A stretch of DNA of 63,022 nt from Terriglobales bacterium (lineage in GTDB: Bacteria; Acidobacteriota; Terriglobia; Terriglobales; Acidobacteriaceae), in NCBI GenBank assembly GCA_049509215.1, contig JBELAC010000001.1, forward strand, positions 1-63,022. Direction: 5' to 3'. The notes under the pieces are model-generated. The model ran no database searches and had not been told where the DNA came from. It saw only the letters and a program-made list of their open reading frames with translations. The position numbers and the translations under genes were made by a program. This document shows positions 9,105 to 59,467 of this stretch, piece after piece; position 1 is the first letter of the stretch; each line of letters begins with the position of its first letter.

Positions 9105-9157
9105 TGTCCGTGCTTAGGCTACCAAAGGTTGGGCGTTCCACGCGGAAAACTGCACCG

Positions 9158-30165: not shown

Positions 30166-30546
30166 TTGATCCGCATTCTTTTGGCAGACGACAATCCGGT
30201 AGTGCGGCGTTGCCTTCGCGGCGTCCTTGAGCAGCAGGAGGGTTGGCAAGTTTGTGACGAGGCATGCGACGGAGCGGACGCTGTACGGCGATTCGAACAC
30301 GGCCACCACGATCTGATCGTGCTCGATTTCCAAATGCCGGAAATGAATGGATTGGAAGCAGCGCGGCAGATCATTCGCGAATCACCGGAAACACCGATTT
30401 TGATGGTTACTCTGTACCTCTCAAAGCAACTGTCGGCGGAAGCCCAGAAAGCCGGGATTAAGGGCACCTGCCCGAAGACTCACATCAGTTGCGTCGTGGA
30501 CGCAGTTTCGGCCCTTCTTCGCGAAGAAACCTACTTTCCCAACTGA
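30166..30546 (+). CDS. single-domain response regulator (REC only)
   Basis: AGGAG SD 8 nt before TTG 30166, giving MIRILLADDNPVV. Phospho-acceptor LIVLDFQMPEMNG, then LMVT and a K. The ORF track starts at GTG 30157. Confidence 0.85.
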   Translation: MIRILLADDNPVVRRCLRGVLEQQEGWQVCDEACDGADAVRRFEHGHHDLIVLDFQMPEMNGLEAARQIIRESPETPILMVTLYLSKQLSAEAQKAGIKGTCPKTHISCVVDAVSALLREETYFPN

Positions 30547-30800: not shown

Positions 30801-31211
30801 ATGGCGGTTCGCATCCTGGTGGCTGATGACCATCCTGTCGTAAGGCGGGGGATCATGAACCTGCTCGCTTCACATCCGGGTTGGGAAATAGTGGACGAAG
30901 CAGTCGACGGCCAAGAAGCGGTGGAGAAGGCAAGTCAATTGAATCCTGATGTCATCGTTTTGGATCTAAGTATGCCAAGGATAGGCGGATTGGACGCCTG
31001 CCGGATGATCCGCAAGAACGCTTCGCATCCCGAGATACTAGTGGTGACCCAGCACGATTCCAGGCAGATGATGCGTGAAGCAGAGGCAGCGGGAGCCAGG
31101 GGTTATGTTGTTAAATCGAATATCGCGCGAGATTTGGTAAGGGCGGTCGAGGCAACCAGTCAACACAGACCCTTTGGTCTGGGGTCCGATCCGTCCAAAC
31201 ACTTATGGTGA
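30801..31211 (+). CDS. single-domain response regulator (REC only, NarL-type receiver)
   Basis: MAVRILVADDHPVVRRG, VIVLDLSMPRIGG, LVVTQHD, GARGYVVKS. No HTH follows. Confidence 0.88.
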   Translation: MAVRILVADDHPVVRRGIMNLLASHPGWEIVDEAVDGQEAVEKASQLNPDVIVLDLSMPRIGGLDACRMIRKNASHPEILVVTQHDSRQMMREAEAAGARGYVVKSNIARDLVRAVEATSQHRPFGLGSDPSKHLW

Positions 31212-42461: not shown

Positions 42462-43552
42462 ACCAGCACGGGAATAACGCTAATCCGAAAACCTCGAACG
42501 GCCTGAGTGTTGCATCCGCCGAAACGAGCCTGCGCGGCGAAGTTGCGGTTGATGCTCCGAATGCTATCGAAGTCCAACATATTGTTAAACAATACGGCGA
42601 TTTCACGGCAGTGGACGATGTCTCTTTCACTGTGAAAGAAGGCGAGATCTTCGGGCTTCTGGGCCCGAATGGCGCCGGCAAGTCGACGCTGATCCGCATG
42701 ATGACCACCCTCATTCCAATTACTTCCGGTGCGGCGCGGATCGCAGGCCACGACGTGAGTCGGGACCCGGATGCGGCTCGGCGAACGATTGGCGTGATCC
42801 CTCAGGCTCTGACCAGCGATTTGGACTTGACCGTGGAAGAGAACATGTCGATTTACGCGAAGCTCTACGACGTCCCGCCGAAGCGGCGCAAAGAAGCGAT
42901 TGATGACTTGCTTGAGACGGTTGACTTGACGAAGTGGCGGGATGCGCAAACAAAAACGCTGTCAGGCGGCATGCGGCGCCGTCTGGAAATTGCACGCGGC
43001 CTCGTGCACAGTCCAAAGATTTTTTTTCTGGATGAGCCAACCACCGGCCTCGACCCCGTGTCGCGCGTCGCCGTGTGGGAGATGCTGGCTAACATCAAGT
43101 CCAAACGCAAGCTGACGGTGCTGATCACCACGCATTACATGGACGAAGCCGACCGGCTCTGCAACCGCATTGCGATCGTGGACCATGGAAAACTTGTCGC
43201 GCTCGACACGCCCGAGGCATTGAAGGCAACCGTTCCCGGATCGACCGTGATCGAGGTGCAATTCGACAATCCCCCTGCCGATTGGGAGGAGCGCCTTCGG
43301 GGTCTACCCGGAGTCACTTCCGTCCAGAACGAAAGCGCGGGCATGTTTCGTGTTCTCACGGCGAATGGGTCCGGCACAACAACGGATCTGGTAGAGATGG
43401 CAGTTGTATCGAAGGTCGTCCTCAAAACTCTCACCGTGCAGAACACAACGCTGGACGACGTCTTCGTTCATTACACGGGTCGGCAGCTGCGCGATGAACT
43501 GGTGAAATCGTACTCATTTGTAATGCCGCCACGTCCGGGGATGCAACCTTGA
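42458..43552 (+). CDS. ABC transporter ATP-binding protein (ABC-2/DrrA-like)
   Basis: Walker A GPNGAGKST, signature LSGGMRRRL and Walker B IFFLDEPTTGLD. ATGA overlaps on both sides. Confidence 0.92.
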   Translation: MNQHGNNANPKTSNGLSVASAETSLRGEVAVDAPNAIEVQHIVKQYGDFTAVDDVSFTVKEGEIFGLLGPNGAGKSTLIRMMTTLIPITSGAARIAGHDVSRDPDAARRTIGVIPQALTSDLDLTVEENMSIYAKLYDVPPKRRKEAIDDLLETVDLTKWRDAQTKTLSGGMRRRLEIARGLVHSPKIFFLDEPTTGLDPVSRVAVWEMLANIKSKRKLTVLITTHYMDEADRLCNRIAIVDHGKLVALDTPEALKATVPGSTVIEVQFDNPPADWEERLRGLPGVTSVQNESAGMFRVLTANGSGTTTDLVEMAVVSKVVLKTLTVQNTTLDDVFVHYTGRQLRDELVKSYSFVMPPRPGMQP

Positions 43553-44661
43553 ATCGTACGCTAGCGATTATCGAGCGCGAGATGCGCAAGTTCTTCCGTT
43601 CACCAACACTGATGATGGTGTCCATGATTTTCCCGCTCGTCCAGCTTATCGTGCTGGGCAACGCCTTCGGCGGAAAGATTCGCGACGCCAGGATGGGGAT
43701 CGTGGATGAAGACCATGGGACACAAGCCATCCGCATAAAGGAAGCATTCGATTCAGTGCGGGCCACGGCGCGGACTTTTGTTACCGTTCCCTACGATGAC
43801 GAGGTTCAGGCGCGCGAAGACGTGCGCAACGGCAAGATCGAGGGGGCGGTCATCATCCCCCCACAGTATTCGAAGATGGTGTATGAGAAGAACCATCCCC
43901 GGATCGCGCTCGTCGTCGACAACAGCGACAACTTCATGAGTTCGACGCTGGAAGACAGCATGACCACCCTCACCGACGCTTTGAACCAACCGGACATTCA
44001 GCCTCGTCTGCTTCAACAAACCGCGCTCGATGTTGTCGAACTATATCCTTACATCGAGTACATGAAATTCCTGCTGCCCGGGTCGATATCGCTGGCAATG
44101 TTCGTCTCGGCAATGATCGGCGGCGGAATGTTATACATCGACGACAAGGCCCGTGGCGTGCACGAGGGCTATCTTGTAACTCCGATCACGAAGACAGAAT
44201 TGGTTTTCGGATTGAATGGCGCAGGCGCGATCAAGGGAATATTGACCGGCATCGTAATCACAATGATCGGGTCCCTTCTGGCGGGCGTAGGAACCATTTT
44301 CAATCTGGAAACTATCCTGGGATTGCTTCTGATGATCGTGGCTACGGCGACCGCCTTCAATACGATGATGTTCCTGATGATGGTACGCGTCGAAGATCCG
44401 CTCGTACCACGAGCCACTTTCGGAATTCTGAACACCTTGCTGTTTTTCCCAAGCGGGTCTATTTATCCAATTCAGGCTTTTCCACGATGGTTGCGGGCGA
44501 TCGCAATCGTTGATCCTTTTACGTATGCGGTCCACGGGTTCAAATCGCTTCTGCTGAAAGAGACTGGCCTGACGGCGATAGCCCCGGATCTTCTCTTCCT
44601 ATCCCTCTTTGCCCTCCTTACCCTGGGGTTGGCGGTGCCGCTATTCAAGCGAACGTTGTGA
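43549..44661 (+). CDS. ABC-2 type transporter permease
   Basis: N-terminal TM segment, a large extracytoplasmic loop, and five C-terminal TM helices. Translationally coupled to the ATPase gene. Confidence 0.85.
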   Translation: MNRTLAIIEREMRKFFRSPTLMMVSMIFPLVQLIVLGNAFGGKIRDARMGIVDEDHGTQAIRIKEAFDSVRATARTFVTVPYDDEVQAREDVRNGKIEGAVIIPPQYSKMVYEKNHPRIALVVDNSDNFMSSTLEDSMTTLTDALNQPDIQPRLLQQTALDVVELYPYIEYMKFLLPGSISLAMFVSAMIGGGMLYIDDKARGVHEGYLVTPITKTELVFGLNGAGAIKGILTGIVITMIGSLLAGVGTIFNLETILGLLLMIVATATAFNTMMFLMMVRVEDPLVPRATFGILNTLLFFPSGSIYPIQAFPRWLRAIAIVDPFTYAVHGFKSLLLKETGLTAIAPDLLFLSLFALLTLGLAVPLFKRTL

Positions 44662-45624
44662 GCGGCCGTTCTTGTTTTGCGATCCTTGCGGGATACGTGC
44701 GAGGGTTGACAAAGACGGCGACCTCGACGAGTACGCGAACGCGGAAGTGTTGAGCTGCCCTGCAGGCGCTGACATGTGAAAAAGAAGGTTGACGGACCCT
44801 GAGCTAGGTTTCAGCCGTAACCAGATAAAGCGCCCAATCCGACTGAGCCGGACTTCTTCGGGGCTAAGCCGGTGCACATAGCTGGAAGTGATTCGGGCCA
44901 TTTCGTTCAAGTCGCCCGTGTGGAATTCTACATCGCCCGGATGGCTTAACTGGCGCATCGACTCGAGTTGGCCGGCAACACTTCTGCGGTGGGTCACGCA
45001 AGGCTGGATGCGACAATCGAGAATTTTTTCGATGGCGAACAGCGCTGCGTGATCGACGCGTTCTCCGAATGCGATGTAGAGCGTGTTGGTCGCGGCGACA
45101 AAGTTGATGGGCAGCATCTGAAACGCCTCCAGGATAGGAAGCGGGATAATTCCCGGTAAATTCACTGCCGCCAAGTCGAGCGAGGACACAACTGGGCATC
45201 CCCACTGCAAGGCAAGGGCTGTCGTCACGTCCTGCTCGGTGGCGAACCCGAGTTTCTCAAACCACTCTCCGATTCTTCCATAGCGAGCACGGCGTTGGGC
45301 CTCGAGCGCTGCCCGAACTTCGAGGTGTGTGAGCTTCCCGCGCGCGACCATTAGAAGCCCGAGCGGAATTCGATTCGGTGCCGGAACCGAAGGAGACATT
45401 GTGCGCAAACGCGCTATTCGCCCGACCAGCGCCGTTTCGAGGCAATGAGGCCCACAATAGAATTGTCCATGAAGGATTGTTCCTGTGTCGTGTCGATAGA
45501 GGCGTTGCAGGAATGTTTTTGGGCCAGAGCACGAGAGGAGTGCGCATTCGGCGCGATTGTTATCCGAATGCAGGCGTCTGATCCAATTTACAGACCGGGT
45601 AAATGGTTTGAGAAGGTCCAGCAT
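44641..45624 (-). CDS. Cys4 + T2SSE_N/MshEN-like domain protein without ATPase domain (putative c-di-GMP receptor)
   Basis: C27/C32/C57/C61 cluster. Tandem 24-residue motifs PLGLLMVARGKLTHLEVRAALEAQ and RIGEWFEKLGFATEQDVTTALALQ, then a GspE-N-like core (LPINFVAATNTLYIAFGERVDHAALFAIEKILDCRIQP). Lies 39 nt downstream of fliN/Y. Confidence 0.65.
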   Translation of the reverse strand: MLDLLKPFTRSVNWIRRLHSDNNRAECALLSCSGPKTFLQRLYRHDTGTILHGQFYCGPHCLETALVGRIARLRTMSPSVPAPNRIPLGLLMVARGKLTHLEVRAALEAQRRARYGRIGEWFEKLGFATEQDVTTALALQWGCPVVSSLDLAAVNLPGIIPLPILEAFQMLPINFVAATNTLYIAFGERVDHAALFAIEKILDCRIQPCVTHRRSVAGQLESMRQLSHPGDVEFHTGDLNEMARITSSYVHRLSPEEVRLSRIGRFIWLRLKPSSGSVNLLFHMSAPAGQLNTSAFAYSSRSPSLSTLARIPQGSQNKNGRSQRSLE

Positions 45625-45663
45625 GGCAATGTCCTTTGCAAAGTAGTTCCCATAACACGACTC

Positions 45664-46569
45664 TCAGACAGGCGTATTGGTGGGCGAAGGTTCGACAACC
45701 TCGCTCACACGCAACCCATAGTTGCCGTCGATGACAACCACGTCGCCACGAGCGATAACCCGTCCATCGAGCAGCAGATCGACCGGCGAGTTGAGTGGGT
45801 TATCGAGTTCAACCACCAGTCCCGAACTCAAGGCGAGTACATCGCGCAGCAGCATGCGCCTGGTTCCAAATCGCAGTTTTACGCCGAGCCCAACATCGAG
45901 CAGACGCTGATAACCGGCTGCCGGCGGTTCGAGTGCGGAAGAAGACGCAAAGGAGGGCGTTGCGGTATTTCCTGGGGTAGCCCGCAACTCTGGCGCAGCG
46001 GAAGCTCGAGGAACTGCCGAACCGTGCGATGCGAGCGCGTGGGCCAGGGCGGGACTAATGCGGATCTCGATGGCGATCTCGGTCCCGGCTTCGCCCCTCG
46101 TTCGAATACTGGCCAGCGCGTCTGAGGTTCGGGCCCAAGGTGCTTCCGTACTCGAAACCCGCAACTGTACTTCGCCCCCCAGTTCGGACCCGGCTGTGGT
46201 CGCGGCCAGCCCCGCAACCTGCCTTAACATTTCCTCAAGCGCCTCGCGGTCGTCATTGCTGAGCGCCTCTGTATTCTTGGGATCCCCTCCTTCCGCCGTT
46301 GATGCCTCCGTTTCCCCGAGAAACTTGCGGGCAAGACGAACCGCCGCGTTCTGCGATAGGCGCAGAGACATCTCTCCCTGCACTGAGCCTGCGGCGACGA
46401 CCGTGAAACATTGGTCGGAATCGCTGGCGGCAAGCGGCTCAAGGATCGTTTCGAAAACCACGGGTTTGCCGGAGACTTGAGACAGCACGTTCTGTGTACA
46501 GTTTCTCCAGGCCTCAAACCAGTGCTGGAAGTCACCCTTGATCTTGTTTGAAGCGCCGCCGTCACTCAT
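45664..46569 (-). CDS. fliN: flagellar motor switch protein, long FliN/FliY-type (N-terminal extension + SpoA domain)
   Basis: C-terminal LDVGLGVKLRFGTRRMLLRDVLALSSGLVVELDNPLNSPVDLLLDGRVIARGDVVVIDGNYGLRVSEVV is the SpoA/FliN domain. 4-nt overlap with fliM. Confidence 0.8.
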   Translation of the reverse strand: MSDGGASNKIKGDFQHWFEAWRNCTQNVLSQVSGKPVVFETILEPLAASDSDQCFTVVAAGSVQGEMSLRLSQNAAVRLARKFLGETEASTAEGGDPKNTEALSNDDREALEEMLRQVAGLAATTAGSELGGEVQLRVSSTEAPWARTSDALASIRTRGEAGTEIAIEIRISPALAHALASHGSAVPRASAAPELRATPGNTATPSFASSSALEPPAAGYQRLLDVGLGVKLRFGTRRMLLRDVLALSSGLVVELDNPLNSPVDLLLDGRVIARGDVVVIDGNYGLRVSEVVEPSPTNTPV

Positions 46570-47552
46570 GGCTCACCTGCCGAAAGAAGCTGAGGTTCGA
46601 GCGCGAGGACGCGAGCACCACGGTGCAGGTTGACCCGCACCGGTGCTGCCGAACAGAGCGGCACGTCTTCGACCCCGAGAATGGCTGCCGCGGATGCCTG
46701 GCGTCGAAATGCAAGCTGATCGCCGGCCGACAGATGGGACAGCCTCTCCAGAGGAACATCCAGTTCCTGCAACGCCAGTTCTAACGAGAATTGGCAATCG
46801 AGAAGTTTTTTCTGGATCTGACAACGGGATTCAATCGGACTGCGAGGCCGCTGATACCCACTGTCTGCGGATATCTTCCGCAGGAGTGCATTCGAAACCA
46901 GGGCTGGCACTGCGAGGTTTAGCGTGCCGCGCGCGTCTGACATTCTAATTTCGAAACTCAGACACAGATTCTTTTCGTCGGGTGACATCAGCCGCACGGC
47001 CTGCGAAATCTGCAGGCAAGCTCCAAAATCGAATTCGAGATTGATGGCCTGCCAGCTTGCCTGAAGATCCCGGCAGATAATGCGTACCATGCCTTCCAGA
47101 ATCTGGTTTTCAATCTCGGTGAGGTCGCGCGAGATTTCTCCTGAATTGCCTTCTCCTCCCAGCATGATGTCAATGATGGGCAGCGCAATTCCCAAATCGA
47201 GCTGCAAGATCGCCACGGCGCCAAAGGGCGTTACGTTGTACGATGCAAGGTACGTTTTGTCCGGGACACGCTGCAGAAATTCGCGATAAGTGAGATGTTC
47301 GGCCGAAACCAGACTGCAGTCAAAGACAACTCTTAAGAATCCGCCCGCCGACGTTGTAAGATTGCGCGCAAACAATTCATGAAGCTGGTTGATCGCGCGC
47401 AGCTGCTCGCGCCCGATTTGCCCGGCTTGTCGAATGTCCCACGCTTGCACGACTGGCCCGCTCGAACTGCTGGATGCTTCTGCACCCGACCGCGCCGCCC
47501 GCACCATTTCATCGATTTCGCGCTGGTTTAGAACTTTCTCCATAAGCCGCAA
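46566..47552 (-). CDS. fliM: flagellar motor switch protein FliM
   Basis: N-terminal LNQREIDEMV (the LSQxEIDxLL-type motif). Size and position are as expected, with a C-terminal SpoA-like region. Confidence 0.8.
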   Translation of the reverse strand: MRLMEKVLNQREIDEMVRAARSGAEASSSSSGPVVQAWDIRQAGQIGREQLRAINQLHELFARNLTTSAGGFLRVVFDCSLVSAEHLTYREFLQRVPDKTYLASYNVTPFGAVAILQLDLGIALPIIDIMLGGEGNSGEISRDLTEIENQILEGMVRIICRDLQASWQAINLEFDFGACLQISQAVRLMSPDEKNLCLSFEIRMSDARGTLNLAVPALVSNALLRKISADSGYQRPRSPIESRCQIQKKLLDCQFSLELALQELDVPLERLSHLSAGDQLAFRRQASAAAILGVEDVPLCSAAPVRVNLHRGARVLALEPQLLSAGEP

Positions 47553-47558
47553 TCTCTC

Positions 47559-48350
47559 CTAGGGGCACCCCGCGCTCGCGCCTTTGGTATGGACAGGTCC
47601 CAGGTTTATATCCAGGAAACTGAGCCGGGCGCGAAGTCGAACCATCGCGAGCGAATGAATCTGCGAAACACGCGACTCGCCGATGCCGAGTACCGCTCCC
47701 ACCTCTTTCATGGTGAGCTCTTCAAAATAGTAAAGAGAAAGCACGCGCTGCTCTTTTTCCGGCAGTTCCGAAATCGCCTCCGCCAGCAAATCCTTCAACT
47801 CGGAACGGAGACATTGAAAGAATGGCGTTTCCTCGGGCTTCGACGCAACCGAGTCGGCGAGATTTTCCTCCTTGCCATCATGTGGGGATTCGACCCGCAG
47901 GCTTCCGATCTCGAGTGAATCGAGTTCAGCCAGCAATGCCTGCAGTTCATCGAGCCGCAGCCCCATTTCGTGCGCCAGTTCGTTCTCAGTGGGTGTGCGT
48001 CCGAGACGGGAAGCGAGCTGGCTATGTGCCTCTTCCACCTGCCGCCCTTTGCGGCGCAATTCGCGCGGACTCCAGTCGAGTTCTCGCAAGCTATCGAGGA
48101 TCGCTCCCCGGATCCTGAACTTGGCGTAAGAACTGAACTGCACGTGCTTAGACTGGTCAAACTTGCCGAAAGCATCGATCAGCCCGACAACTCCGGCGTG
48201 AACCAGATCTTCAAAAGGAACATGACGTGGCAGACGCTCATGAATCCGCCTTGCGATATATCGCACCTGCGGCAACTGCTCCAGCAGGATGCGTTCACGT
48301 TCGGCCTCGGCCAAGACGGATTGATAGGCTTCAACAGCACGTTTCGGCAT
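47559..48350 (-). CDS. fliA: flagellar sigma-28 factor FliA
   Basis: GAGGAG SD then MPKRAVEAYQ. Regions 2-4 present (YIARRI, FEDLVHAGVVGLIDA, VLSLYYFEELTMKEVGAVLGIGESRVSQIHS). Confidence 0.9.
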   Translation of the reverse strand: MPKRAVEAYQSVLAEAERERILLEQLPQVRYIARRIHERLPRHVPFEDLVHAGVVGLIDAFGKFDQSKHVQFSSYAKFRIRGAILDSLRELDWSPRELRRKGRQVEEAHSQLASRLGRTPTENELAHEMGLRLDELQALLAELDSLEIGSLRVESPHDGKEENLADSVASKPEETPFFQCLRSELKDLLAEAISELPEKEQRVLSLYYFEELTMKEVGAVLGIGESRVSQIHSLAMVRLRARLSFLDINLGPVHTKGASAGCP

Positions 48351-48407
48351 GCTGGACTCCTCGTGTGGAAGACACTTTCTTAAGTGCATTTGTCGAAACA
48401 AAGTTTT

Positions 48408-50492
48408 TCATCGAACCGTCCCCAAAGACTGCACCGGAACCATGGGAGGAATTTCGAGCGGCGAAAGCACGACCACCTTCGGCAAAAAGGGCTCGAGCAG
48501 GCGCCGCAGATGGAAGCGCGCCGGAGTGGGACAAAGCAAAATCGGCGCCGTCTGCGCCACTTGCGCCCCCCCCAGTTGTTTGAGGCTATCGAGTACGCGC
48601 CGGACAAAAGAAGGCTGCAGACCCGTACTCGTTGCAGGCGCGGTCTGCGGCGCAAACGCGCGGTTGAGCTCTTCTTCGATCGTGTGATCGAGCGTGAGCA
48701 CGCGTAAGCCACCATCGTCGGAGAGCAGCGGGCGAACCAGCGCCCGGCCCAGCGCCTGCCGCGATGCTTCCACCAGCAGCACGGGGTGCTTGGTGGAAAC
48801 CGACACGTCAAGAAGCGACTCGAGAATGGTCGATAGATCGCGGATCGAGACTTGCTCGCGCAACAACTGCTGCAGAACTTTCTGCACCTCGCCCAGCGAG
48901 AGTGTTTTCGGAACCAGTTCCTCGGCCAGCTTGGGATGACTTTCGCCCAGCCGGTCGAGCAGCCGCTTGGTCTCCTGCCGGGTAAGCAGTTCGTAGGCGT
49001 GCTGACGGATGACTTCGGCGAGGTGCGTCGAGAGCACCGAAGTCTGATCGACAACTGCATACCCGCTTGCAAGCGCCTGAGACTCGAGAGTGCGATCGAT
49101 CCAAAGAGCGGCCACTCCAAATGCGGGCTCGCGAGTCGGAGTTCCGGCGAGTGGCGGAGGCGTCAGCTCAGAACTGATGGCGAGCACACGGTCGTCGAGC
49201 ATCTCCCAGCGTGCAATTTCGACACCGCGCAGCGAAATTACATACTCGCGAGGTTTCAGCCGGACATTGTCCGTAATGTGAATCGGCGGAACAAGGAAGC
49301 CAAGTTGCAGTGCTAGGGTGCTACGCAGTGACTTGACGCGCGCCAGAAGCTGTCCCCCTTGCTGTGCGTCGACCAGCGAAACCAGCGCGTAGCCCACTTC
49401 GAGCGATAGTTCGTCAAGCTTCAGTAGGTCCTCGAGCGAGTCGCTCTTCGCACCTTTCTTTTCTTTTCCGGGCGACGAGCCCACGCCGGTCTGGTCTTTT
49501 TCTGCTTCTTTCGGCGCCGCCGGAAGGCGCGATGACAGGAATGCGGCAAAGCCGGCGATCGCCAGAAATGACAATTTCGGCAAGCCGGGAATCATGGCCA
49601 ATGCGGCCATCACACCAGCGGCAATCTGCAAGGGCCTGCGACGCGAAAGGAGCTGGGTTCCCAAGTCGACGGAAAGCGTGGAACCCGACGACGCCCGCGT
49701 AACGACCATGCCCCCCGCCATCGAGACCAGCAGCGATGGGATCATCGTCACCAGTCCGTCCCCTACCGTGAGGATAGTGTAAGTTTTCAGCGCTTCTCGG
49801 AAAGGTATGTCAAGCTGAAAGACTCCGATGAGGAAACCGGCGAGAATATTAATGGCGGTAATCAGAATGGTGGCAATCGAGTCGCGCTGGTTGAAGCGGG
49901 CCGCGCCGTCCATCGCTCCGTAGAACTCGGCTTCGCGCGCCACCTGATCCCGCCGCGCACGCGCCTGGTGCTCATCGATCAGCCCTGCATTGAGGTCGGC
50001 ATCGATGGCCATCTGTTTGCCAGGCAAAGCATCGAGAGTGAAACGTGCCGTGACTTCGGCCGTGCGCACCGCGCCGTGGCTGACCACGATGTACTGGATC
50101 GCGATCAGCGCCAGGAAAAGAACGAATCCGACAACATAATTGCCGCCCACTACGAACTGGCCGAAGGCTTCGATCACGCGTCCGGCCGCGGACGCGCCTT
50201 CATTTCCGTGCAACAGAATGCGGCGGCTTGAAGCAAGGTTCAACGAAAGCCGGAACAAGGTGAGCAGCAACAGCAGACTGGGAAAGACCGAGAACTGTGC
50301 CGGGCGCAGGATCTGAAGCGCGCTCAGCAGCACCAGCACGGAGGCCGCAATGCTGGTGGCCAGCAAGAGATCGAGCACCAGCGCTGGGAGCGGAACGAGC
50401 ATGACGAAAACCAGGCTCACGGCGGCCAGTGGGACGATCCACTCGCTGAGCGGATTGCGGGCGGGTGCGGTGGCGGCTGCGGCGGGCATCAA
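48408..50492 (-). CDS. flhA: flagellar export apparatus protein FlhA
   Basis: 694 aa. TM domain with FVVGGNYVVGFVLF...RFTLDALPGKQMAIDADL, plus a C-terminal cytoplasmic domain. Confidence 0.97.
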   Translation of the reverse strand: MMPAAAATAPARNPLSEWIVPLAAVSLVFVMLVPLPALVLDLLLATSIAASVLVLLSALQILRPAQFSVFPSLLLLLTLFRLSLNLASSRRILLHGNEGASAAGRVIEAFGQFVVGGNYVVGFVLFLALIAIQYIVVSHGAVRTAEVTARFTLDALPGKQMAIDADLNAGLIDEHQARARRDQVAREAEFYGAMDGAARFNQRDSIATILITAINILAGFLIGVFQLDIPFREALKTYTILTVGDGLVTMIPSLLVSMAGGMVVTRASSGSTLSVDLGTQLLSRRRPLQIAAGVMAALAMIPGLPKLSFLAIAGFAAFLSSRLPAAPKEAEKDQTGVGSSPGKEKKGAKSDSLEDLLKLDELSLEVGYALVSLVDAQQGGQLLARVKSLRSTLALQLGFLVPPIHITDNVRLKPREYVISLRGVEIARWEMLDDRVLAISSELTPPPLAGTPTREPAFGVAALWIDRTLESQALASGYAVVDQTSVLSTHLAEVIRQHAYELLTRQETKRLLDRLGESHPKLAEELVPKTLSLGEVQKVLQQLLREQVSIRDLSTILESLLDVSVSTKHPVLLVEASRQALGRALVRPLLSDDGGLRVLTLDHTIEEELNRAFAPQTAPATSTGLQPSFVRRVLDSLKQLGGAQVAQTAPILLCPTPARFHLRRLLEPFLPKVVVLSPLEIPPMVPVQSLGTVR

Positions 50493-51613
50493 CGCTGTAC
50501 CTCAGATGGATCGGCGAGAGAGCGGCCAGCGAGCGGAACGGAGCCGGAGCCCGGCGCCCGGGAGTTAAGGGCGCGCGCCTGCGCGCGATAGATCGCCGCC
50601 AGGACTTCAGCGACAACCGCGTAGAGTTTCGGAGGAACGCTTCCGCCGATCTCGACGCTCCGGTAGAGCAGATGTGCCAGCGGTTTATTTTCCACGATGG
50701 CGATGTTGTGCCAGCGCGCAATCTCCTTGATTTCGCTGGCGAGCCGGTCGCGCCCCTTCGCGACCACGACCGGCGCCGGCATATCGGGACGGTATTCGAG
50801 CGCGATCGCGTAAGACGTGGGATTCGTGATGACGACTGTGGCGCGCTTGGCATCCTCGAGCATGCGCCGTCGCCGTACCTGACGCTGCAGGCGCCGGATG
50901 CGCGACTTGATCACCGGATTGCCTTCGCTCTCCTTATATTCGTCAACCAATTCTTGCCGGCTCATCTTCAGCTCGCTCTCCAGATGACGCCGCTCGAACA
51001 AATAGTCGAGCAAGGCCCACAACAGGAGCACCAGCGCCGATTTCCACGCCATTTCAAAAACGCGATTGGCGGCAAATCCGGTCAAGCCTCGCGCATTGCG
51101 CGAGGAAAGTGTCACCAAGGAACACCAGTCGCGCCGCAGGCAACTCACCGCCATGCAGACAACGGCAGACGCTGGCAGCAGCGACTTGAGCAGCGAGCGC
51201 AATGCGGTAATCGAGAATAGCTGCTGCAGCCGGGCTGCCGGGCTAACGCGTGAGAGCGTCGGCAACAGCGATGCTGGAGCGAAAACCAGCCCTCCCTGCG
51301 CCAGGGCCGATGAGATCGCAACCGTCCAACTCAGCCCGAGCGCGGCGGCCACGCCCGCAAGAAGTCTGGAATGCGTAATGAGCGCGGACAGACTGTCCAT
51401 CCGCAACGCCCCGGAAGCACCCCCCTCGACGCAATCGCGAAGGAATGATCGCCACAGCAGCGGGAAGCTCGACATCTCGGTGACGAGAACCAGCGTGGCC
51501 GCAACTCCCGCCGACGCGCCGATGAGGTCGCGACTGCGCGCGACCTGTCCTTTCTCGCGCGCCTTCTCGCGCCGACGTGGTGTCGCCTGCTCGGTCTGGT
51601 TGGATTGGGCCAT
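50489..51613 (-). CDS. flhB: flagellar export apparatus protein FlhB
   Basis: N-terminal EQATPRRREKAREKGQVARSRDL. The autocleavage region reads VVITNPTSYAIAL. 4-nt overlap with flhA. Confidence 0.93.
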   Translation of the reverse strand: MAQSNQTEQATPRRREKAREKGQVARSRDLIGASAGVAATLVLVTEMSSFPLLWRSFLRDCVEGGASGALRMDSLSALITHSRLLAGVAAALGLSWTVAISSALAQGGLVFAPASLLPTLSRVSPAARLQQLFSITALRSLLKSLLPASAVVCMAVSCLRRDWCSLVTLSSRNARGLTGFAANRVFEMAWKSALVLLLWALLDYLFERRHLESELKMSRQELVDEYKESEGNPVIKSRIRRLQRQVRRRRMLEDAKRATVVITNPTSYAIALEYRPDMPAPVVVAKGRDRLASEIKEIARWHNIAIVENKPLAHLLYRSVEIGGSVPPKLYAVVAEVLAAIYRAQARALNSRAPGSGSVPLAGRSLADPSEVQR

Positions 51614-51625
51614 AACGAAACGTGG

Positions 51626-52441
51626 TCAGTGCGCGAGTTTCAAAATCCTTTCCGAAGCGTCGAGTGCCGCGGCAAAGCGCGCATCGAAAAAGCGCGGCCA
51701 GAACGAAATCGCCCCCATCAGCAATGCCAGGCCCAGGACATTCTTCAGAGAAATGCCGATAAACAGCACCGGCAGCTGCGGCGAGGCCTTGCCGAGAAAT
51801 CCCAGAGCCACATCGGCGAACAAGCTGGCCACCACGACCGGTGCCGCAATCTGCAGGCCCGCTACCAGCATGCTGGAACTGAAAACCAGCAGCGCTGAGA
51901 TTGCGGGCCAGGTCAGGCACAAGCGCCCGGGCGGCAGATACGCGAACGTCCGCGCCAATCCGCGCAGCAACCACTGCGGCACGCTGAGTTGAATGAAAAG
52001 CTGCAGCACGACCAGTTGATAGAGCGTGGCCAGCACCGGCGAATCGGCCTGGCTGTCAGGATTGAGGACGCTCGCGAGCGAGTAGCCCATTTGCACTCCG
52101 CAAACCTGTCCCGCCAATTGAGCAGCCTCAAAGACGAACTGCATCGTGAAGCCAAGCACAAAGCCGATGGCGAACTCTTCGCCGAGCAGGATGGCAATGC
52201 CCGGTGCTCCCAAACCGGACGGGATTTCCGGCACGAAGGGCGTAAGAAACACCGTCAGCAGAAACGCAAGTCCCGCTCGGACGCGCAGCGGAATAGCAAC
52301 GCTGCCGAGAAAAGGACTAACGACCAGCAGTCCGCTGACGCGCGCAAGCGCAATCATCCAGGTGAGCACCGTGCCAGGAAGCGCCCCGTCCATCGATACC
52401 CCAACAAGGTTGGCAAAAACAGTCATTTTCGAAAACTTCAC
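51626..52441 (-). CDS. fliR: flagellar export apparatus protein FliR
   Basis: Polytopic membrane protein in the canonical fliPQR-flhB order. Confidence 0.88.
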   Translation of the reverse strand: MKFSKMTVFANLVGVSMDGALPGTVLTWMIALARVSGLLVVSPFLGSVAIPLRVRAGLAFLLTVFLTPFVPEIPSGLGAPGIAILLGEEFAIGFVLGFTMQFVFEAAQLAGQVCGVQMGYSLASVLNPDSQADSPVLATLYQLVVLQLFIQLSVPQWLLRGLARTFAYLPPGRLCLTWPAISALLVFSSSMLVAGLQIAAPVVVASLFADVALGFLGKASPQLPVLFIGISLKNVLGLALLMGAISFWPRFFDARFAAALDASERILKLAH

Positions 52442-52457
52442 TCGAATCCCGCGAATC

Positions 52458-52727
52458 TCAGTGCAAAAGCGAGTGGAAGTCGCTCCACATGCCGATCGTG
52501 AAAACCATCAGCCGCCGCAACATCCATGGCATAAGGAGCAACGCTGCCGTCGCCACCGCGGCCAGTCGCGGCACGGTCGAGATGGTCTGATCCTGCAGAG
52601 AAGTCAGCACCTGTCCGACGTTCACCAGCAGGCTAATCAGCGTGGCAATCGCGAGCAACGGCGCAACCAGCAGGAAAGCCATCGCAAGTGTGTTACGAAG
52701 CAGACCGATGATTTCCGAAGTCTCCAT
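52458..52727 (-). CDS. fliQ: flagellar export apparatus protein FliQ
   Basis: 89 aa with two TM segments. VGQVLTSLQDQTIS is the conserved loop. Confidence 0.9.
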   Translation of the reverse strand: METSEIIGLLRNTLAMAFLLVAPLLAIATLISLLVNVGQVLTSLQDQTISTVPRLAAVATAALLLMPWMLRRLMVFTIGMWSDFHSLLH

Positions 52728-52736
52728 CTGTGCCTT

Positions 52737-53492
52737 TCAACTAAAGCTCCGCATGAGGGAGCCGATCAGCAGATTCCAGCCGTCGACCACCACGAATAAG
52801 AGAATCTTGAGTGGGGTCGAGATGACGACCGGAGGCAACTGCATCATCCCAACCGAGGTGGTAATCGCGGCCGTAACCAGGTCAATTACCAGAAAAGGAA
52901 GAAACAATGCGGCGCCGATGCGAAATCCCACTTGTAATTCGGACAGAAGATAGGCGGGTGCAACCACGCGCATGCCAAGATCGTCCGGCCCGGCCGGGCG
53001 CGGCACATGCGCCAGCTCGACAAACAGCGCCAGATCTTTTTCCCGGGTGTACTTCAGCATGAAGTGCCGAAGCGGTGCAGCCGCGCGCTCGAGCGCAACC
53101 ATCGACGTGATCTTCCCCGCATCCAGCGGAACGAGCGCACCTGAATAGATGGCTGCTCCCACCGGCTGCATGAGAAAAAAAGTCAGAATGAGCGCGAGCC
53201 CGATGAGCATCTGGTTCGAAGGCGCAGTCTGCGTACCCAACGCCTGCCGCAGAAAATGGAACACGACCAGCAACCGGACAAAAGGTGTCATGCAGAGCAC
53301 GATCGTCGGCAACAGGGTCAGCAGCGTGAGCAGAACGACGATGTTCCACGGAACGGAGTTCACCGGAAGGCCGTTGAGCGACAGGCCCGACGGACTTTGC
53401 ACCTGAGAGCGAGCCCATAGATCGGGTGCAAGGCCGAGGGAAAACGGCACGACCGCGTACCAGCATCTTGAGCGTCTTTGCGTCGTCGTCAT
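52737..53492 (-). CDS. fliP: flagellar export apparatus protein FliP
   Basis: TLLPTIVLCMTPFVRLLVVFHFLRQALG and FLPFLVIDLVTAAITTSVGMMQLPP are hallmark FliP segments. Confidence 0.93.
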   Translation of the reverse strand: MTTTQRRSRCWYAVVPFSLGLAPDLWARSQVQSPSGLSLNGLPVNSVPWNIVVLLTLLTLLPTIVLCMTPFVRLLVVFHFLRQALGTQTAPSNQMLIGLALILTFFLMQPVGAAIYSGALVPLDAGKITSMVALERAAAPLRHFMLKYTREKDLALFVELAHVPRPAGPDDLGMRVVAPAYLLSELQVGFRIGAALFLPFLVIDLVTAAITTSVGMMQLPPVVISTPLKILLFVVVDGWNLLIGSLMRSFS

Positions 53493-53821
53493 AACCGCGA
53501 TTCCTCGGATGTATCTCCGCCGCCATCGGCCCTCGAGATCGGAGTCGCGTCGGGCAAGCGCGCCAGCAGTGTCACCGCAGACGGACTGGAGCCAATCAAG
53601 AACCTTTTTCGTTCAAATTCGACGACCACCACAAACCGTCGATCGCCGAGCGCGCGCGTTTCCCCCACCCGAAGCAGCTTCGGAGCTCCGTGGGTACGTG
53701 ACTTCAGTGCTCCCCACCATCCTTCGAGCTTCCGCCGGACAATCGTGAACGCGACCGGCAACGCCTGCGGAACGGGGTTGGGGGGGGCAACCAGCATCAA
53801 GTGCGTCGGCGTAATTTTCAT
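53489..53821 (-). CDS. fliO: putative FliO/FliZ-like protein
   Basis: Sits immediately upstream of fliP, with LRVGETRALGDRRFVVVVEFERKRFLIGSSPSAVTLLARL resembling the FliO C-terminal region. The N-terminal TM segment is weak. Confidence 0.5.
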   Translation of the reverse strand: MKITPTHLMLVAPPNPVPQALPVAFTIVRRKLEGWWGALKSRTHGAPKLLRVGETRALGDRRFVVVVEFERKRFLIGSSPSAVTLLARLPDATPISRADGGGDTSEESRL

Positions 53822-54091
53822 TCAGGCCAACTCCGTCAGTCGCACGGCAACATGATTGTTCACAATTTCAAATTCGCTCCAGGCAATCAGCGCCCCATTG
53901 ATGCGCAGCGGCACGTCTTCGCCGACCACCCAGCGTGTGTCGACCAGACGGCCATTCTCCATCGCGACCAGATCGGCAACCGTAAAGTCAGGAACCGGAA
54001 TTTCGATCGACAGCACACAGGGCAGCCCTTCGACGCGCGTCCAGGGATCCGCTGTGGGGATTTCAGGCTTAGGTTGAGCCGCGGCGCCCAT
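53822..54091 (-). CDS. fliN: flagellar motor switch protein FliN (short, SpoA domain only)
   Basis: LPCVLSIEIPVPDFTVADLVAMENGRLVDTRWVVGEDVPLRINGALIAWSEFEIVNNHVAVRLTEL. TAATG overlap with fliL. Confidence 0.85.
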   Translation of the reverse strand: MGAAAQPKPEIPTADPWTRVEGLPCVLSIEIPVPDFTVADLVAMENGRLVDTRWVVGEDVPLRINGALIAWSEFEIVNNHVAVRLTELA

Positions 54092-54657
54092 TACGTCTGC
54101 ACCAGAAATTCCGTGAAGTAGACATTTTCCACTCCGAGTGCGGGCGCGCGTTCCTGCAAGCCTCTCAGTATTCGTTCTTTGAGCTTCTGCTTGCCGTCTG
54201 CTGCGAGTAACTCTTCTGGCTGCGCGCTCGCGAGGACAGCGAGAACGGTGTCGCGCACCAGAGCAACTGGCGCTTCCTCTTTCTTGCCCGGCGGGCGTGA
54301 CAAACCGAGCGTGACACCAACCCGCAGGTAAGAACGCGCACTGGCGCCGCCAACATTGACTACAAACGTTTCAAGAACCAGCGTGGCCTCAGGCGTGCCT
54401 TGGGTCGCCGCAACATTGGCGTGACTGCCCGGCCACAACCAGAAACATCCAGTCGCCATCGCGATCGCGGTCGCGACATAAATCCAGCCTTTCTTATTCG
54501 CCGCCCGCTTCTTGACCGCGCCGGGCGGAGATAATCTCGCGGTTCCCCCTTGATCACCGTCCTTCGAAGCATTCGAGTACGACGGCTCAGCCTGTAATCC
54601 GATCATGCAAACAGGAGTGCAAGCCGGATGCCCAGAGCCGGCAGGACGATTGCACAA
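54091..54657 (-). CDS. fliL: flagellar basal-body-associated protein FliL
   Basis: A single TM segment, then LETFVVNV......YLRVGVTL and a C-terminus VYFTEFLVQ. Start uncertain (TTG 54657 or ATG 54606). Confidence 0.75.
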   Translation of the reverse strand: MCNRPAGSGHPACTPVCMIGLQAEPSYSNASKDGDQGGTARLSPPGAVKKRAANKKGWIYVATAIAMATGCFWLWPGSHANVAATQGTPEATLVLETFVVNVGGASARSYLRVGVTLGLSRPPGKKEEAPVALVRDTVLAVLASAQPEELLAADGKQKLKERILRGLQERAPALGVENVYFTEFLVQT

Positions 54658-54788
54658 AAGGGAGACCCGCTAAACGCGGCCAAATCATGGATTGGCCAAG
54701 CGTTTCGCTGCTTTCTGGCTATCCGTGCAAGCTAGAAGACAACCGCTTGCGTTCATCTAAGAGCGTTCTCATTGAGACTTTCTTATAA

Positions 54789-54814
54789 GGGCCGCGGGTT
54801 GTTCCCGCGGCCCC
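54789..54814 (-). terminator. GC-rich hairpin downstream of flgE (candidate terminator / operon boundary)
   Basis: gggccgcggg-ttgttc-cccgcggccc. On the minus strand it is followed by ttataagaaag, a weak U-tract. Confidence 0.5.
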
Positions 54815-54841
54815 TGACCCTTCACACATCGGCGTCGGCGC

Positions 54842-56116
54842 CTATTGCTTGAGGTTAATTGTGTCCTGCGCGACCTGGTCGAACGTTGTCACAACGCGGG
54901 CATTCGCCTCATAGCTCCGCTGGGCAACGATCAAGTTCGCAAATTCGGTGGCAATGTCGACGTTCGATTGTTCGAGAGCGCCTCCCGAAAGCGTGCCAAG
55001 GCCGCCAGTTGTTGGCGCGCCAATCGTGGGCTGGCCCGATGCCAGAGTCGGCGAGAAATCGTTACCGCCATTCCGAGAAAGACCCTGCTCGTCGGCAAAG
55101 CTGGCGAGCGCGATCTGTCCGAGCACGGCGGTCGTTCCGTTACTGAAAGCTCCCGTGATCGTTCCATCGGAGCCGATGCTGAAATTTTCCAGCGTGCCAC
55201 TGCTGGTGCCATCTTGTTGGATGGACGCCGTACTATCAGCGGCCGCCAACTGTGTGATCATCGGTGTCGACCCATTCAGCAAGTTCCAGTTCACACTCTG
55301 GGTGCTCGCTCCATCCGCGAATCCGCTGATACTGATGCCCGTGATATTGACCGGGGGCGTATTTGCAGATCCACTCCCAATCGTGTCGGAAAGTAGGTTT
55401 CCGTTGCCGTCGAAAGTCAGGGTCCCGGTCGACAAGATTCCAGTCTGCGCGGTGCCATTGACTGGGTTGAGGTCGCTTGCGGGGATCGAAACCTGATAGC
55501 TCCAGGTATTGGTTCCAGTATTGGTGTAGGTGAACGTGAGCTGATGAGGGGCGCCAAGCGAATCGTAAATGGTGGCTTGCGTTGAGTAGGTGGCGCCGAC
55601 TCCGCCGGTGGCGTCGAGGTTCGTCGTCATGGAAATATTGGCGGTAGGAGTAGCAGGACTACTCGTTCCGGCTCCGAGGGCGAGCGTACCGAGTCCCTGA
55701 CTGGTGTTGACGACCCCTTTGACTGCCTGATATCCCAGCACTTGCTGACCGTCGGCGGTTTCAAGCAGGTTATCGGTTCCGACTTCAAAATTCCCCGCTC
55801 GCGTGTAGCTCTGCACTCCGTTCTGCTCGACTACAAAGAACCCATTGCCGTTGATGGCCACATCCGTCGCTATGCCGGTAGAAGTGACATCGCCTTGCGT
55901 GAAATCGGATGGCTGGGAGGCGACTTCGACACCCGCGCCCCGCTGGATCGGATCGCCGGCGCCATCTGAGCCAAGATTCTGGTAGAACAGGTCGGCAAAC
56001 TGGATCTGCTGATCCTTGTATCCGATGGTGTTGAGGTTGGCCAGATTGTTAGCGACCGTGGATAGAGCCGTCGAACTGGCATCCAATCCGGAGAGCGGCA
56101 CTGAGAATGAAGGCAT
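54842..56116 (-). CDS. flgE: flagellar hook protein FlgE
   Basis: AAGGAG SD. N-terminal MPSFSVPLSGLDASSTALSTVANNLANLNTIGYK and C-terminal EQSNVDIATEFANLIVAQRSYEANARVVTT. Confidence 0.92.
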   Translation of the reverse strand: MPSFSVPLSGLDASSTALSTVANNLANLNTIGYKDQQIQFADLFYQNLGSDGAGDPIQRGAGVEVASQPSDFTQGDVTSTGIATDVAINGNGFFVVEQNGVQSYTRAGNFEVGTDNLLETADGQQVLGYQAVKGVVNTSQGLGTLALGAGTSSPATPTANISMTTNLDATGGVGATYSTQATIYDSLGAPHQLTFTYTNTGTNTWSYQVSIPASDLNPVNGTAQTGILSTGTLTFDGNGNLLSDTIGSGSANTPPVNITGISISGFADGASTQSVNWNLLNGSTPMITQLAAADSTASIQQDGTSSGTLENFSIGSDGTITGAFSNGTTAVLGQIALASFADEQGLSRNGGNDFSPTLASGQPTIGAPTTGGLGTLSGGALEQSNVDIATEFANLIVAQRSYEANARVVTTFDQVAQDTINLKQ

Positions 56117-56125
56117 ATGGACTCC

Positions 56126-56500
56126 TTAATGAGATACGGAATTGAGACTTGCACTTGGCACCGGTGTGGGTGTTGAATTCGTGATGGCCCCGGCCTGCGC
56201 GCTACCGCTTGAACCGGATGTACCGGAGGCGTCGGCAACCAGCGTCTGCATGGACTGGTCAATCTGGGTAAGCTCGCTGAGCGACTGGAACTGTGCCAGT
56301 TGGGCCACAAACTGATTCGGATCCAGCGGATCGATTGGGCTCTGCGCCTGAAGTTGCGCCGATAATAGCTGCAGGAACATCGTATCCAGTCCCCCCGTGT
56401 CGTCGGTCGTCGATGACGAGGAAGACGAGGAACTGCTCGCCGACGAGGCTGCCGAAGAAGCAGAATGAGAACCAAGTGACTGCAGTAGCGGAATGTACAT
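56126..56500 (-). CDS. flgD: flagellar hook assembly/capping protein FlgD (short form)
   Basis: AGGAGG SD then MYIPLL. MFLQLLSAQLQAQSPIDPLDPNQFVAQLAQFQSLSELTQI is the conserved FlgD N-domain. Only 124 aa. Confidence 0.75.
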   Translation of the reverse strand: MYIPLLQSLGSHSASSAASSASSSSSSSSSTTDDTGGLDTMFLQLLSAQLQAQSPIDPLDPNQFVAQLAQFQSLSELTQIDQSMQTLVADASGTSGSSGSAQAGAITNSTPTPVPSASLNSVSH

Positions 56501-56508
56501 ACAACCTC

Positions 56509-58830: not shown

Positions 58831-59013
58831 CGCAATCCCTCAAATCGAAATGCAGGCTGAGCGCCAAAGCGACGCGGCAGAGCGGCTGACACAGGTTTTA
58901 TGGCGAACGCAATGATTTCAGGGAGTTACAGCGGCACGCCGGCAAACGCAAGCGATCATGGGAGATTGCCGGAGCAGCGTGCGGCAACGATTGCCCAGTG
59001 CAGCAGGGCAAAA

Positions 59014-59460
59014 TCAGCCGTTCCGCCGCTGCCAGCGCTGCAATAGATAAGCCGCGTCCAGTTCTTTCTGTTGCCGTCGCATTTGTTCGATCTGATAAGC
59101 GTGGCGCGCGCGCGCGCGCAGAGAATCGAGTGCCTCGCGATCCCGATAGGCCTTTTGATAAGTCGCCGCCGCCCGGTTGCGCGCGTCTTGCAGTTGGCGA
59201 ACTTCGTTTTCAATCTGTCGTCGAAATTGCTGAAGCTGGTCGCGTAGCAGGCTCGCAAACTGCAAATCGGCACCGGTTCGTCCCACACTCAGCGCGTTCG
59301 CATCGGCCAGCGCGGACTCGGCGAGAAACTTGTCGAACTGCGCCATCAATTCCTGCTTACGAGCTAGCTGAAAGGATGCTTCCTGGAGCGCGAGCATGCG
59401 CTGGTGCTCGATGCTGTAGCGCAGTCGACGTAGCGGCTCAAGCGCGAAACGAAACGGCAT
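59014..59460 (-). CDS. fliJ: flagellar export chaperone FliJ
   Basis: 148-aa predicted coiled coil (FRFALEPLRRLR...), immediately after fliI. Confidence 0.65.
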   Translation of the reverse strand: MPFRFALEPLRRLRYSIEHQRMLALQEASFQLARKQELMAQFDKFLAESALADANALSVGRTGADLQFASLLRDQLQQFRRQIENEVRQLQDARNRAAATYQKAYRDREALDSLRARARHAYQIEQMRRQQKELDAAYLLQRWQRRNG

Positions 59461-59467
59461 AATCCAG

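Follow-up and report, generated by a model that had tools for sequence, protein, structure and literature searches.

A Cys4-MshEN protein without an ATPase in an acidobacterial flagellar operon: a candidate c-di-GMP receptor

The X gene and its place in the flagellar run

The 63,022-nt stretch analysed here (contig JBELAC010000001.1, positions 1 to 63,022, from a Terriglobales soil bacterium; hereafter the window) carries an 18-kb run of flagellar genes on its reverse strand. The final gene of the run encodes a 327-amino-acid (aa) protein, labelled X or the window protein, which is examined here as a candidate receptor for cyclic di-GMP (c-di-GMP). Its open reading frame (ORF; 44641-45624, reverse strand) comprises 327 codons and a stop, starts with ATG, and encodes a putative zinc knuckle, an MshEN domain and a C-terminal module. 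Direct reading of the sequence places an AAGGA Shine-Dalgarno-like site (45632-45636, reverse strand) 7 nt 5' of the start codon.

A 39-nt spacer (45625-45663, reverse strand) separates X from the stop codon of fliN/Y at 45664. A scan found no promoter- or terminator-like sites in this spacer, with counts at shuffle level. The fliN/Y gene (45664-46569, reverse strand; 301 aa, FliMN_C at the C-terminus) lies directly upstream of X. It is preceded by fliM (46566-47552) and the sigma-28 gene fliA (47559-48401), which were identified by Pfam and together occupy 46566-48401 on the reverse strand. The remaining run occupies 48408-62515 on the same strand and holds flhA, flhB, fliR, fliQ, fliP, fliO, fliN, fliL, flgE, flgD, a 773-aa ORF, fliI and fliG. 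Read in the coding direction, the order is fliG, (fliH), fliI, ..., flgD, flgE, fliL, fliN, fliO, fliP, fliQ, fliR, flhB, flhA, fliA, fliM, fliN/Y, X; Pfam confirms every gene named from fliG to fliN/Y other than the bracketed fliH. The initial annotation, made from the window's sequence alone, had placed X 39 nt after fliN/Y at the end of a same-strand flagellar run, and both the sequence and Pfam bear this out.

MshEN fold, domain layout and predicted ligand site

An AlphaFold (AF2) model of X, built from a diverse 78-sequence alignment, has a predicted local distance difference test score (pLDDT) of 83.7 and a predicted template modelling (TM) score (pTM) of 0.78. An earlier model from 24 close homologs gave a pLDDT of 42 and was not used. 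The model runs from an N-terminal helix through a Cys hairpin and helix, four helices (residues 88-141), a beta-beta-alpha-beta-alpha unit (170-224) and a further module (231-283) to a disordered tail. Searched against the PDB with Foldseek, its top 19 matches are all MshEN/GSPII domains. The best match is c-di-GMP-bound MshE (5htl; E 2.8e-7, TM 0.75 on the target, 26% identity, 143 aligned columns), and the neighbours also include PilB-N with PilZ (7lkm/7lkn/7lko), XpsE (2d28) and GSPII-A (9g1w).

Sequence profiles point the same way. Searched against the PDB, the profile of 78 family members matches the N-domains of PilB (5zfr, E 2e-14), PilF (6f8l, E 2.6e-14) and MshE (5htl, E 2.2e-11) over profile positions 86-231, which span both MshEN subdomains; X alone finds 5zfr (E 4.8e-8) and 5htl (E 8.1e-6). 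The NCBIfam model NF053729 ('c-di-GMP_motif, MshE-related') aligns over its full length (1-53/53) to residues 87-140 of X (E 1.1e-6, 28.3 bits) and matches all 78 members, with a best E of 2e-14. Pfam PF05157 ('MshEN domain') matches 37 of the 78. The NfrB model matches residues 77-220 of X (E 7.7e-7) and is found in 72 of the 78 members. Matches to DUF4388 occur in four members. Pfam SymE_toxin (E 0.25 for X; 19/78 members at E<=0.01) was rejected as spurious, covering about 16 residues inside the second c-di-GMP motif.

The ATPase that accompanies MshEN in the traffic ATPases is absent. Neither Pfam nor NCBIfam finds a C-terminal T2SSE ATPase domain with Walker motifs in X, where structured sequence stops at residue 284, and the NCBIfam PilB model matches X only over PilB N-terminal residues 3-151. 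Pfam finds no PilZ domain at E<=10 in X or at E<=0.01 in the 78 members. Neither Pfam nor NCBIfam holds a model for the whole family. By sequence and by fold, X holds a complete, bona fide MshEN domain (residues ~85-228) without an ATPase, and the profile search and structure prediction suggested by the initial annotation thus support its proposal of this architecture.

The MshEN_N four-helix subdomain (residues 85-142; 45199-45372, reverse strand) contains both 24-residue c-di-GMP motifs and is the most conserved region of X. Motif I (residues 87-110; 45295-45366, reverse strand) reads PLGLLMVARGKLTHLEVRAALEAQ and aligns to MshE 9-32. Motif II (residues 117-140; 45205-45276, reverse strand) reads RIGEWFEKLGFATEQDVTTALALQ and aligns to MshE 38-61. 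The pairing of MshE with X residues is R9=P87, L10=L88, G11=G89, Q32=Q110, R38=R117, L39=I118, G40=G119 and Q61=Q140. At the canonical positions L2/G3/G10/L17/L21/Q24, motif I has L88, G89, G96, V103, L107 and Q110, and motif II has I118, G119, G126, V133, L137 and Q140. The initial annotation had described both stretches as fitting the published motif. The MshEN match stands, but the fit is imperfect: motif I begins with Pro where Arg is expected, hydrophobic position 7 of motif II is occupied by Glu, and the spacer between the motifs (111-116) has 6 residues instead of 5.

Conservation was assessed in 446 near-full-length members with 27-100% identity to X, 306 of them below 45%. In motif I, P87 is present in 100%, L88 in 93%, G89 in 99%, G96 in 94%, L107 in 97% and Q110 in 90% (His in 9%); in motif II, G119 and Q140 reach 100% and G126 94%. 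The remaining hydrophobic motif positions are conservatively kept. Position 1 of motif II is mixed (46% R, 31% K, 13% N). Motif I opens family-wide as R85-x-P87 (99% and 100%), and R85 would pair with MshE R7, part of a positive patch, if the MshE alignment is extended two residues upstream. The mean frequency of the top residue is 0.68 over residues 85-142, against 0.47-0.52 in the other structured parts and 0.11 in the tail.

Published binding data help to interpret this pattern. In MshE, mutants in the hydrophobic contacts lose more than 10-fold in affinity, whereas R9, D12 and Q32 mutants lose less than 5-fold, and the relaxed search pattern of the same authors permits [RKPN] at position 1 (PMC5013675). 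In PilF GSPII-B, position 1 accepts K, R or L, contributes by stacking and gives the tightest binding, 2 nM, with Leu (PMC11731258). Reported MshEN-c-di-GMP affinities range from 2 nM to 0.5 uM (PMC5013675, PMC11731258). The non-binding MshEN domain PilF GSPII-A has H33 and R62 in place of Gln, S39 for Arg and A41 for Gly (PMC12002112). X probably binds c-di-GMP, to judge by its sequence, since purifying selection acts in its family on contact residues that GSPII-A has lost.

N-terminal to the MshEN domain lies the Cys4 module (residues 25-64; 45433-45552, reverse strand), with the signature C27-x4-C32 ... Y56-C57-x3-C61, a putative zinc knuckle or treble clef. The initial annotation had recognized the CxxxxC...CxxxC layout at C27, C32, C57 and C61. 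These cysteines are present as described, invariant in the 24 close homologs and 92-99% conserved among the 446 members. The AlphaFold model predicts a beta-hairpin followed by a helix (strands 49-51 and 54-56, helix 59-75). Both the hairpin-plus-helix prediction and the C...C...(W/F)YC-x3-C signature are shared with FCS/PHD-like treble-clef fingers. Searches of the PDB and Pfam returned only weak matches (PHD finger, E 0.03; zf-FCS, 0.0045 in 1 of 26 members). These similarities are marginal and do not justify placing the module in a zinc-finger family.

The MshEN_C alpha/beta subdomain (residues 143-228; 44941-45198, reverse strand) is followed by a family-specific C-terminal module (residues 229-284; 44773-44940, reverse strand) of one strand, a helix and three strands. 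This module is modelled with pLDDT above 90, and its W268 is present in all 446 members. No credible sequence relative of it was found in the PDB; the best match, the BACH2 BTB domain (E 0.16), is taken as chance. The tail (residues 285-327, 43 aa; 44641-44772, reverse strand) is unconserved and predicted to be disordered (pLDDT below 50), with a mean top-residue frequency of 0.11 and 63% gaps. The C-terminal region of about 110 aa first described as unassigned resolves into the MshEN_C subdomain (to about residue 228), a structured 55-aa module (229-284) and the 43-aa tail; the extent of the unassigned part was overstated.

A second set of cysteines, C143, C204 and C209, lies within MshEN_C (44941-45198) and is 91-99% conserved in all branches. 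A fourth Cys stands at the position of window residue I263 in the C-terminal module (44836-44838) in 81% of distant members; the window's clade has I, V or L at position 263 and an invariant H192. The C143/C204/C209 set could form a second metal or redox site that bridges MshEN_C and the C-terminal module. More broadly, the Cys4 module and the C143/C204/C209 set, with or without C263, could be metal or redox sites.

Family range and flagellar linkage

The X family comprises 1037 clusters at 90% identity (E<=1e-3). In a 50%-identity library there are 1282 matches, 271 of them with E<=1e-30, for at least 271 clusters at that level. Among the 150 best matches listed, most are 280-310 aa long and cover profile positions ~25-290, so these share the whole architecture. 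All named sources are Acidobacteriota (Terriglobales, Terriglobia and 'Acidobacteria bacterium').

In close relatives, fliN/Y lies directly upstream of X on the same strand in 77 of 81 loci from Terriglobales metagenome-assembled genomes. About 24 of these have no match to the window's fliA/flhA and about 17 have no ABC operon downstream, yet the fliN/Y-X pair is kept. Two of the four exceptions have no fliN/Y upstream (L059, L081), one has a disrupted copy (L075) and one a 1.5-kb insertion (L074). Across 87 loci the median gap from fliN/Y to X is 47 nt and the smallest is -4. Most gaps in the distant branches fall between -4 and +16 nt, one branch having 59 nt, and stop and start codons often overlap.

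Synteny with flagellar genes, which the initial annotation had named as a check on its reading, holds far beyond these close relatives. Wherever a divergent branch was sampled on a long contig, X lies inside a flagellar cluster. Members at 31-41% identity show the order fliPQR-flhBA-fliA-fliM-fliN/Y-X-(HDOD)-(cheY-cheX)-flgF-flgG-flgA-flgH-flgI-...-flgM. A subgroup with a 282-aa homolog, X' (L090-L092), has flgE-fliN-fliOPQR-flhBA-fliA-X'-HDOD-flgFG...flgM-flgK-flagellin, with X' 23 nt after fliA. A comparison of contigs between P0451, a member of this subgroup, and the close X ortholog of L065 suggests that some genomes hold two flagellar clusters, each with its own X copy. No PilZ, GGDEF or EAL genes were called within +/-8 kb in the distant flagellar clusters.

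An HDOD gene follows X directly in 11/11 loci of four divergent branches (L084-L087, L090-L096; at ~8900-9950 in each locus), and in three of these branches cheY-cheX comes next. The window's clade has no HDOD near X (0/81 loci within +/-8 kb) and none is found in the 63-kb window; HDOD was accordingly rejected as an obligatory partner in this clade. HDOD is also absent beside X in P0131 and P0315. In the distant branches X and HDOD may form an obligatory pair.

Flagellar linkage, seen in nearly all sampled loci, is a property of the family. The operon-terminal position reported at first holds in the window's lineage, but X is internal to the cluster in most other branches, and this position is a peculiarity of the lineage. 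So is the overlap at the 3' end of X. There, 21 nt (44641-44661) are shared convergently with the ORF of an ABC-2 permease (43549-44661, forward strand), the end gene of a tetR-hlyD-ABC ATPase-permease operon that neighbours the flagellar system and lies outside it. The overlap noted initially is real but little conserved: it occurs in just 5 of 64 relatives with the same tail-to-tail order, while the gap is 0-50 nt in 10 and its median is 103 nt. Scant or no room for a terminator between X and the permease is common in the window's clade; the overlap itself is not conserved. A functional meaning of the overlap was rejected because it falls within the unconserved tail and few relatives have it.

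Two of the exceptional loci differ in what precedes X. In both, a sigma-54-type response regulator (receiver-AAA+) stands there (L059, 6504-7784; L081, 3939-6642), accompanied in L081 by a PAS histidine kinase. The X copy in L075 appears frameshifted.

Proposed role, alternatives and known systems

We assign a probability of about 0.45 to the reading that X is a c-di-GMP receptor dedicated to the flagellum and acts on the basal body, with a new architecture of Cys4 knuckle, MshEN and C-terminal module and no ATPase. X would share a transcript with fliA-fliM-fliN/Y, and its translation would in many relatives be coupled to that of fliN/Y. As in MshE and PilF, one c-di-GMP would be bound by the MshEN_N four-helix bundle, between its two helix-turn-helix motifs. 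A rearrangement of MshEN_N, MshEN_C and the flanking modules could let the zinc knuckle, the C-terminal module (W268) or both engage a basal-body component. The likeliest target would be either the switch complex, FliM/FliN(Y), or the export apparatus next to it, and motor output or the assembly of flagella would in this way be tied to the c-di-GMP level. What is observed is the domain identity, the fold, the conserved contact residues and the flagellar linkage; we infer ligand binding, the target and the sign of the effect, and likewise any brake-like role at the motor.

Several observations weigh against this reading. X is in an early/middle operon, whereas YcgR and other known brakes are encoded by late genes. 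Gene neighbourhood does not reveal the target, and the 282-aa subgroup adjoins fliA and HDOD and not fliM/fliN. As the named sources are solely Acidobacteriota, the synteny signal partly reflects shared ancestry. X scores below the curated cutoff of NF053729 (28.3 vs 38 bits), and Pfam run on X alone gives no match. Motif I opens with Pro instead of R, K or L in 100% of the 446 members, and Pro87 is less bulky than those three residues, for which stacking on guanine has been shown. The motif spacer, canonically 5 residues, is 6 in 357 of the 446 and 5 in 80. PilF GSPII-A stays non-binding after repair of its motif, its site being blocked by an N-terminal cap and subdomain contacts (PMC12002112); a perfect motif is thus not sufficient for binding. 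The N-terminal extension of the X family could, by analogy, cap the site as in GSPII-A.

Some of these points would fit a ligand-independent flagellar assembly or scaffold factor, in which the MshEN fold is a protein-protein interaction module with no c-di-GMP sensing. The Pro that opens motif I, the spacer of 6 residues, the possible cap and the score below the NF053729 cutoff all agree with it. There are precedents among degenerate MshEN domains: XpsE/GspE N1 binds GspL, X. citri PilB-N binds PilZ, and PilF GSPII-A is a third case. A passage of PMC12943098 reports XpsE as a degenerate MshEN domain. The structural neighbours of X, too, include non-binding or protein-binding MshEN domains (7lkm/7lkn/7lko, 2d28, 9g1w). 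We nevertheless consider a pure scaffold unlikely. GSPII-A lost its Gln, Gly and Arg contacts, but in the X family, over a spread of 27-100% identity, both Gly are kept at 99-100% and both Gln at 90-100%, and no other part of the protein is as well conserved as the motif region. The c-di-GMP-motif model matches 78/78 members, and the best structural match is a ligand-bound MshE.

A different output is conceivable from the same locus, namely that X is a c-di-GMP-dependent regulator of FliA (sigma-28), as an anti-sigma factor or partner, and controls late flagellar gene transcription. The model would be RsiG, a small binding protein through which c-di-GMP controls the sigma-28-family factor WhiG, which RsiG sequesters when it binds c-di-GMP. 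X, for its part, is in the fliA operon, an early/middle operon. The fliA gene is zero to two genes upstream in every arrangement with enough upstream sequence, and X' follows it directly, at 23 nt, in the 282-aa subgroup. Many anti-sigma factors have zinc-binding modules. We do not expect this to be the function of X, however. RsiG, a coiled-coil protein, and its sigma factor together bind a c-di-GMP dimer, and no search detected homology of X to RsiG or any sequence or fold similarity to FlgM or ZAS domains. The Cx4C...Cx3C layout differs from the HxxxCxxC motif of ZAS domains, and the clusters of relatives already encode FlgM. The tightest coupling in most branches is to fliN/Y and not to fliA.

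The recurrent HDOD neighbour raises the further idea that X and this protein, with CheY/CheX where present, form a signalling or adaptor pair, for example in directed proteolysis or in terminating a chemotaxis signal at the switch. HDOD proteins SadB and GsmR have been tied to motility or flagellar gene regulation, SadB as a proteolysis adaptor (PMC6543031, PMC12075610), and the HDOD gene follows X in all 11 loci mentioned above, with cheY-cheX behind it in three branches. The idea is improbable for the family as a whole: X is highly conserved in the window's clade although HDOD is missing there, and P0131 and P0315 also lack it beside X. The HDOD mechanism is itself unsettled, and c-di-GMP binding by SadB is disputed.

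That the flagellar link is mere inherited gene order in one lineage and X acts in an unrelated process is very improbable, because although the named sources are all Acidobacteriota, the downstream ABC operon is likewise largely syntenic in close relatives and X lacks fliN/Y in 3/81 loci (L059, L081, L075), the linkage persists at 27-41% identity through at least three cluster arrangements with all other neighbours changing, the X start often overlaps the fliN/Y stop, and a second flagellar cluster has a paralog of its own.

Within the reading of X as a flagellar c-di-GMP receptor, the closest known domains are those of MshE, PilB, PilF and GspE (PF05157; 5htl, 5zfr, 8pdk). X has the same two-subdomain fold (TM 0.75 to 5htl) and the same tandem 24-residue motifs with the L, G, G, L, L and Q positions (profile E 2e-14). 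The differences from these traffic ATPases are that X has no ATPase, that its MshEN domain lies inside the protein, with the Cys4 knuckle on one side and the novel C-terminal module on the other, that motif I opens R-x-P instead of R/K, and that the spacer is usually 6 rather than 5. The traffic ATPases are encoded in pilus or type II secretion clusters, X in flagellar clusters. NfrB reportedly is a c-di-GMP-activated glycosyltransferase with a C-terminal MshEN domain; like other MshEN fusions that lack an ATPase, it makes MshEN a portable sensor outside the traffic ATPases. X shares with NfrB the non-ATPase MshEN domain, but has no enzymatic output domain and a different biological context. 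Its output must run via protein-protein contacts.

In function, the nearest counterparts are PilZ proteins (YcgR, MotI/DgrA, FlgZ, MotL, PlzC/PlzD). Like them, X is a small, non-enzymatic, putative c-di-GMP receptor encoded in a flagellar cluster, and it would most likely act as they do, by direct binding to motor or switch proteins. Its sensor fold is unrelated to theirs and its gene is in an early/middle operon, not a late one. The initial annotation knew of no flagellar protein with MshEN as its only receptor domain. In agreement with this, a literature search found no description of the X architecture or of an MshEN-only flagellar effector in the parts of the sources it covered, which included the founding MshEN paper and the MshEN passages of a 2026 survey. 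What is new in X is MshEN as the receptor in a flagellar role, together with the domain architecture; the kind, a flagellum-tied c-di-GMP receptor, is known. A broader claim can be made only tentatively: X would represent a new class of flagellar c-di-GMP effector, so far confined to Acidobacteriota, the first with MshEN instead of PilZ, FleQ or FliI, with a second input via the Cys clusters and its own paralog for each flagellar system.

Control of flagella by c-di-GMP is a central theme of bacterial lifestyle switching. To our knowledge, the well-studied direct flagellar effectors are all PilZ proteins, FleQ-type regulators or the export ATPase. If the reading of X as a receptor is true, a structurally unrelated receptor class is added to them. 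Acidobacteriota are among the most abundant soil phyla, and as far as we know the control of their motility is essentially unstudied. X is a cloneable candidate for the swim-or-settle decision with clear point mutants (L88, G89, Q110, R117, G119, Q140, P87R, Cys to Ser). The functional claim is a well-founded hypothesis, and through it the control of motility in a major soil phylum can be put to a direct test. With its invariant R-x-P start and 6-residue spacer, the family is also a natural system in which to ask how much the MshEN motif may vary and still bind.

The flagellar run has further features of its own. The 773-aa ORF (56509-58830, reverse strand), directly upstream of flgD on the coding strand, on the fliI side, has no Pfam match; from its position it could be a hook-length (FliK-like) or other lineage-specific flagellar protein. 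There are two FliN-type genes, one for a short FliN of 89 aa (53822-54091, reverse strand, before fliO) and the other for the 301-aa FliN/Y (45664-46569, reverse strand). The first ~220 residues of FliN/Y have no Pfam match. The ortholog in one relative has a weak CheX match, and this sequence similarity suggests that FliN/Y is a FliY-like switch protein. Many polar-flagellate clusters have flhF/flhG between flhA and fliA; here fliA directly follows flhA (47559-50492, reverse strand) with no flhF/flhG (fleN) between them, and the same holds in every relative examined. About 15 kb from the flagellar run, a tblastn search with the CheY of a relative's cluster as query detected two adjoining stretches coding for CheY-like receiver domains (30172-30465 and 30801-31115, forward strand; 32-33% identity).

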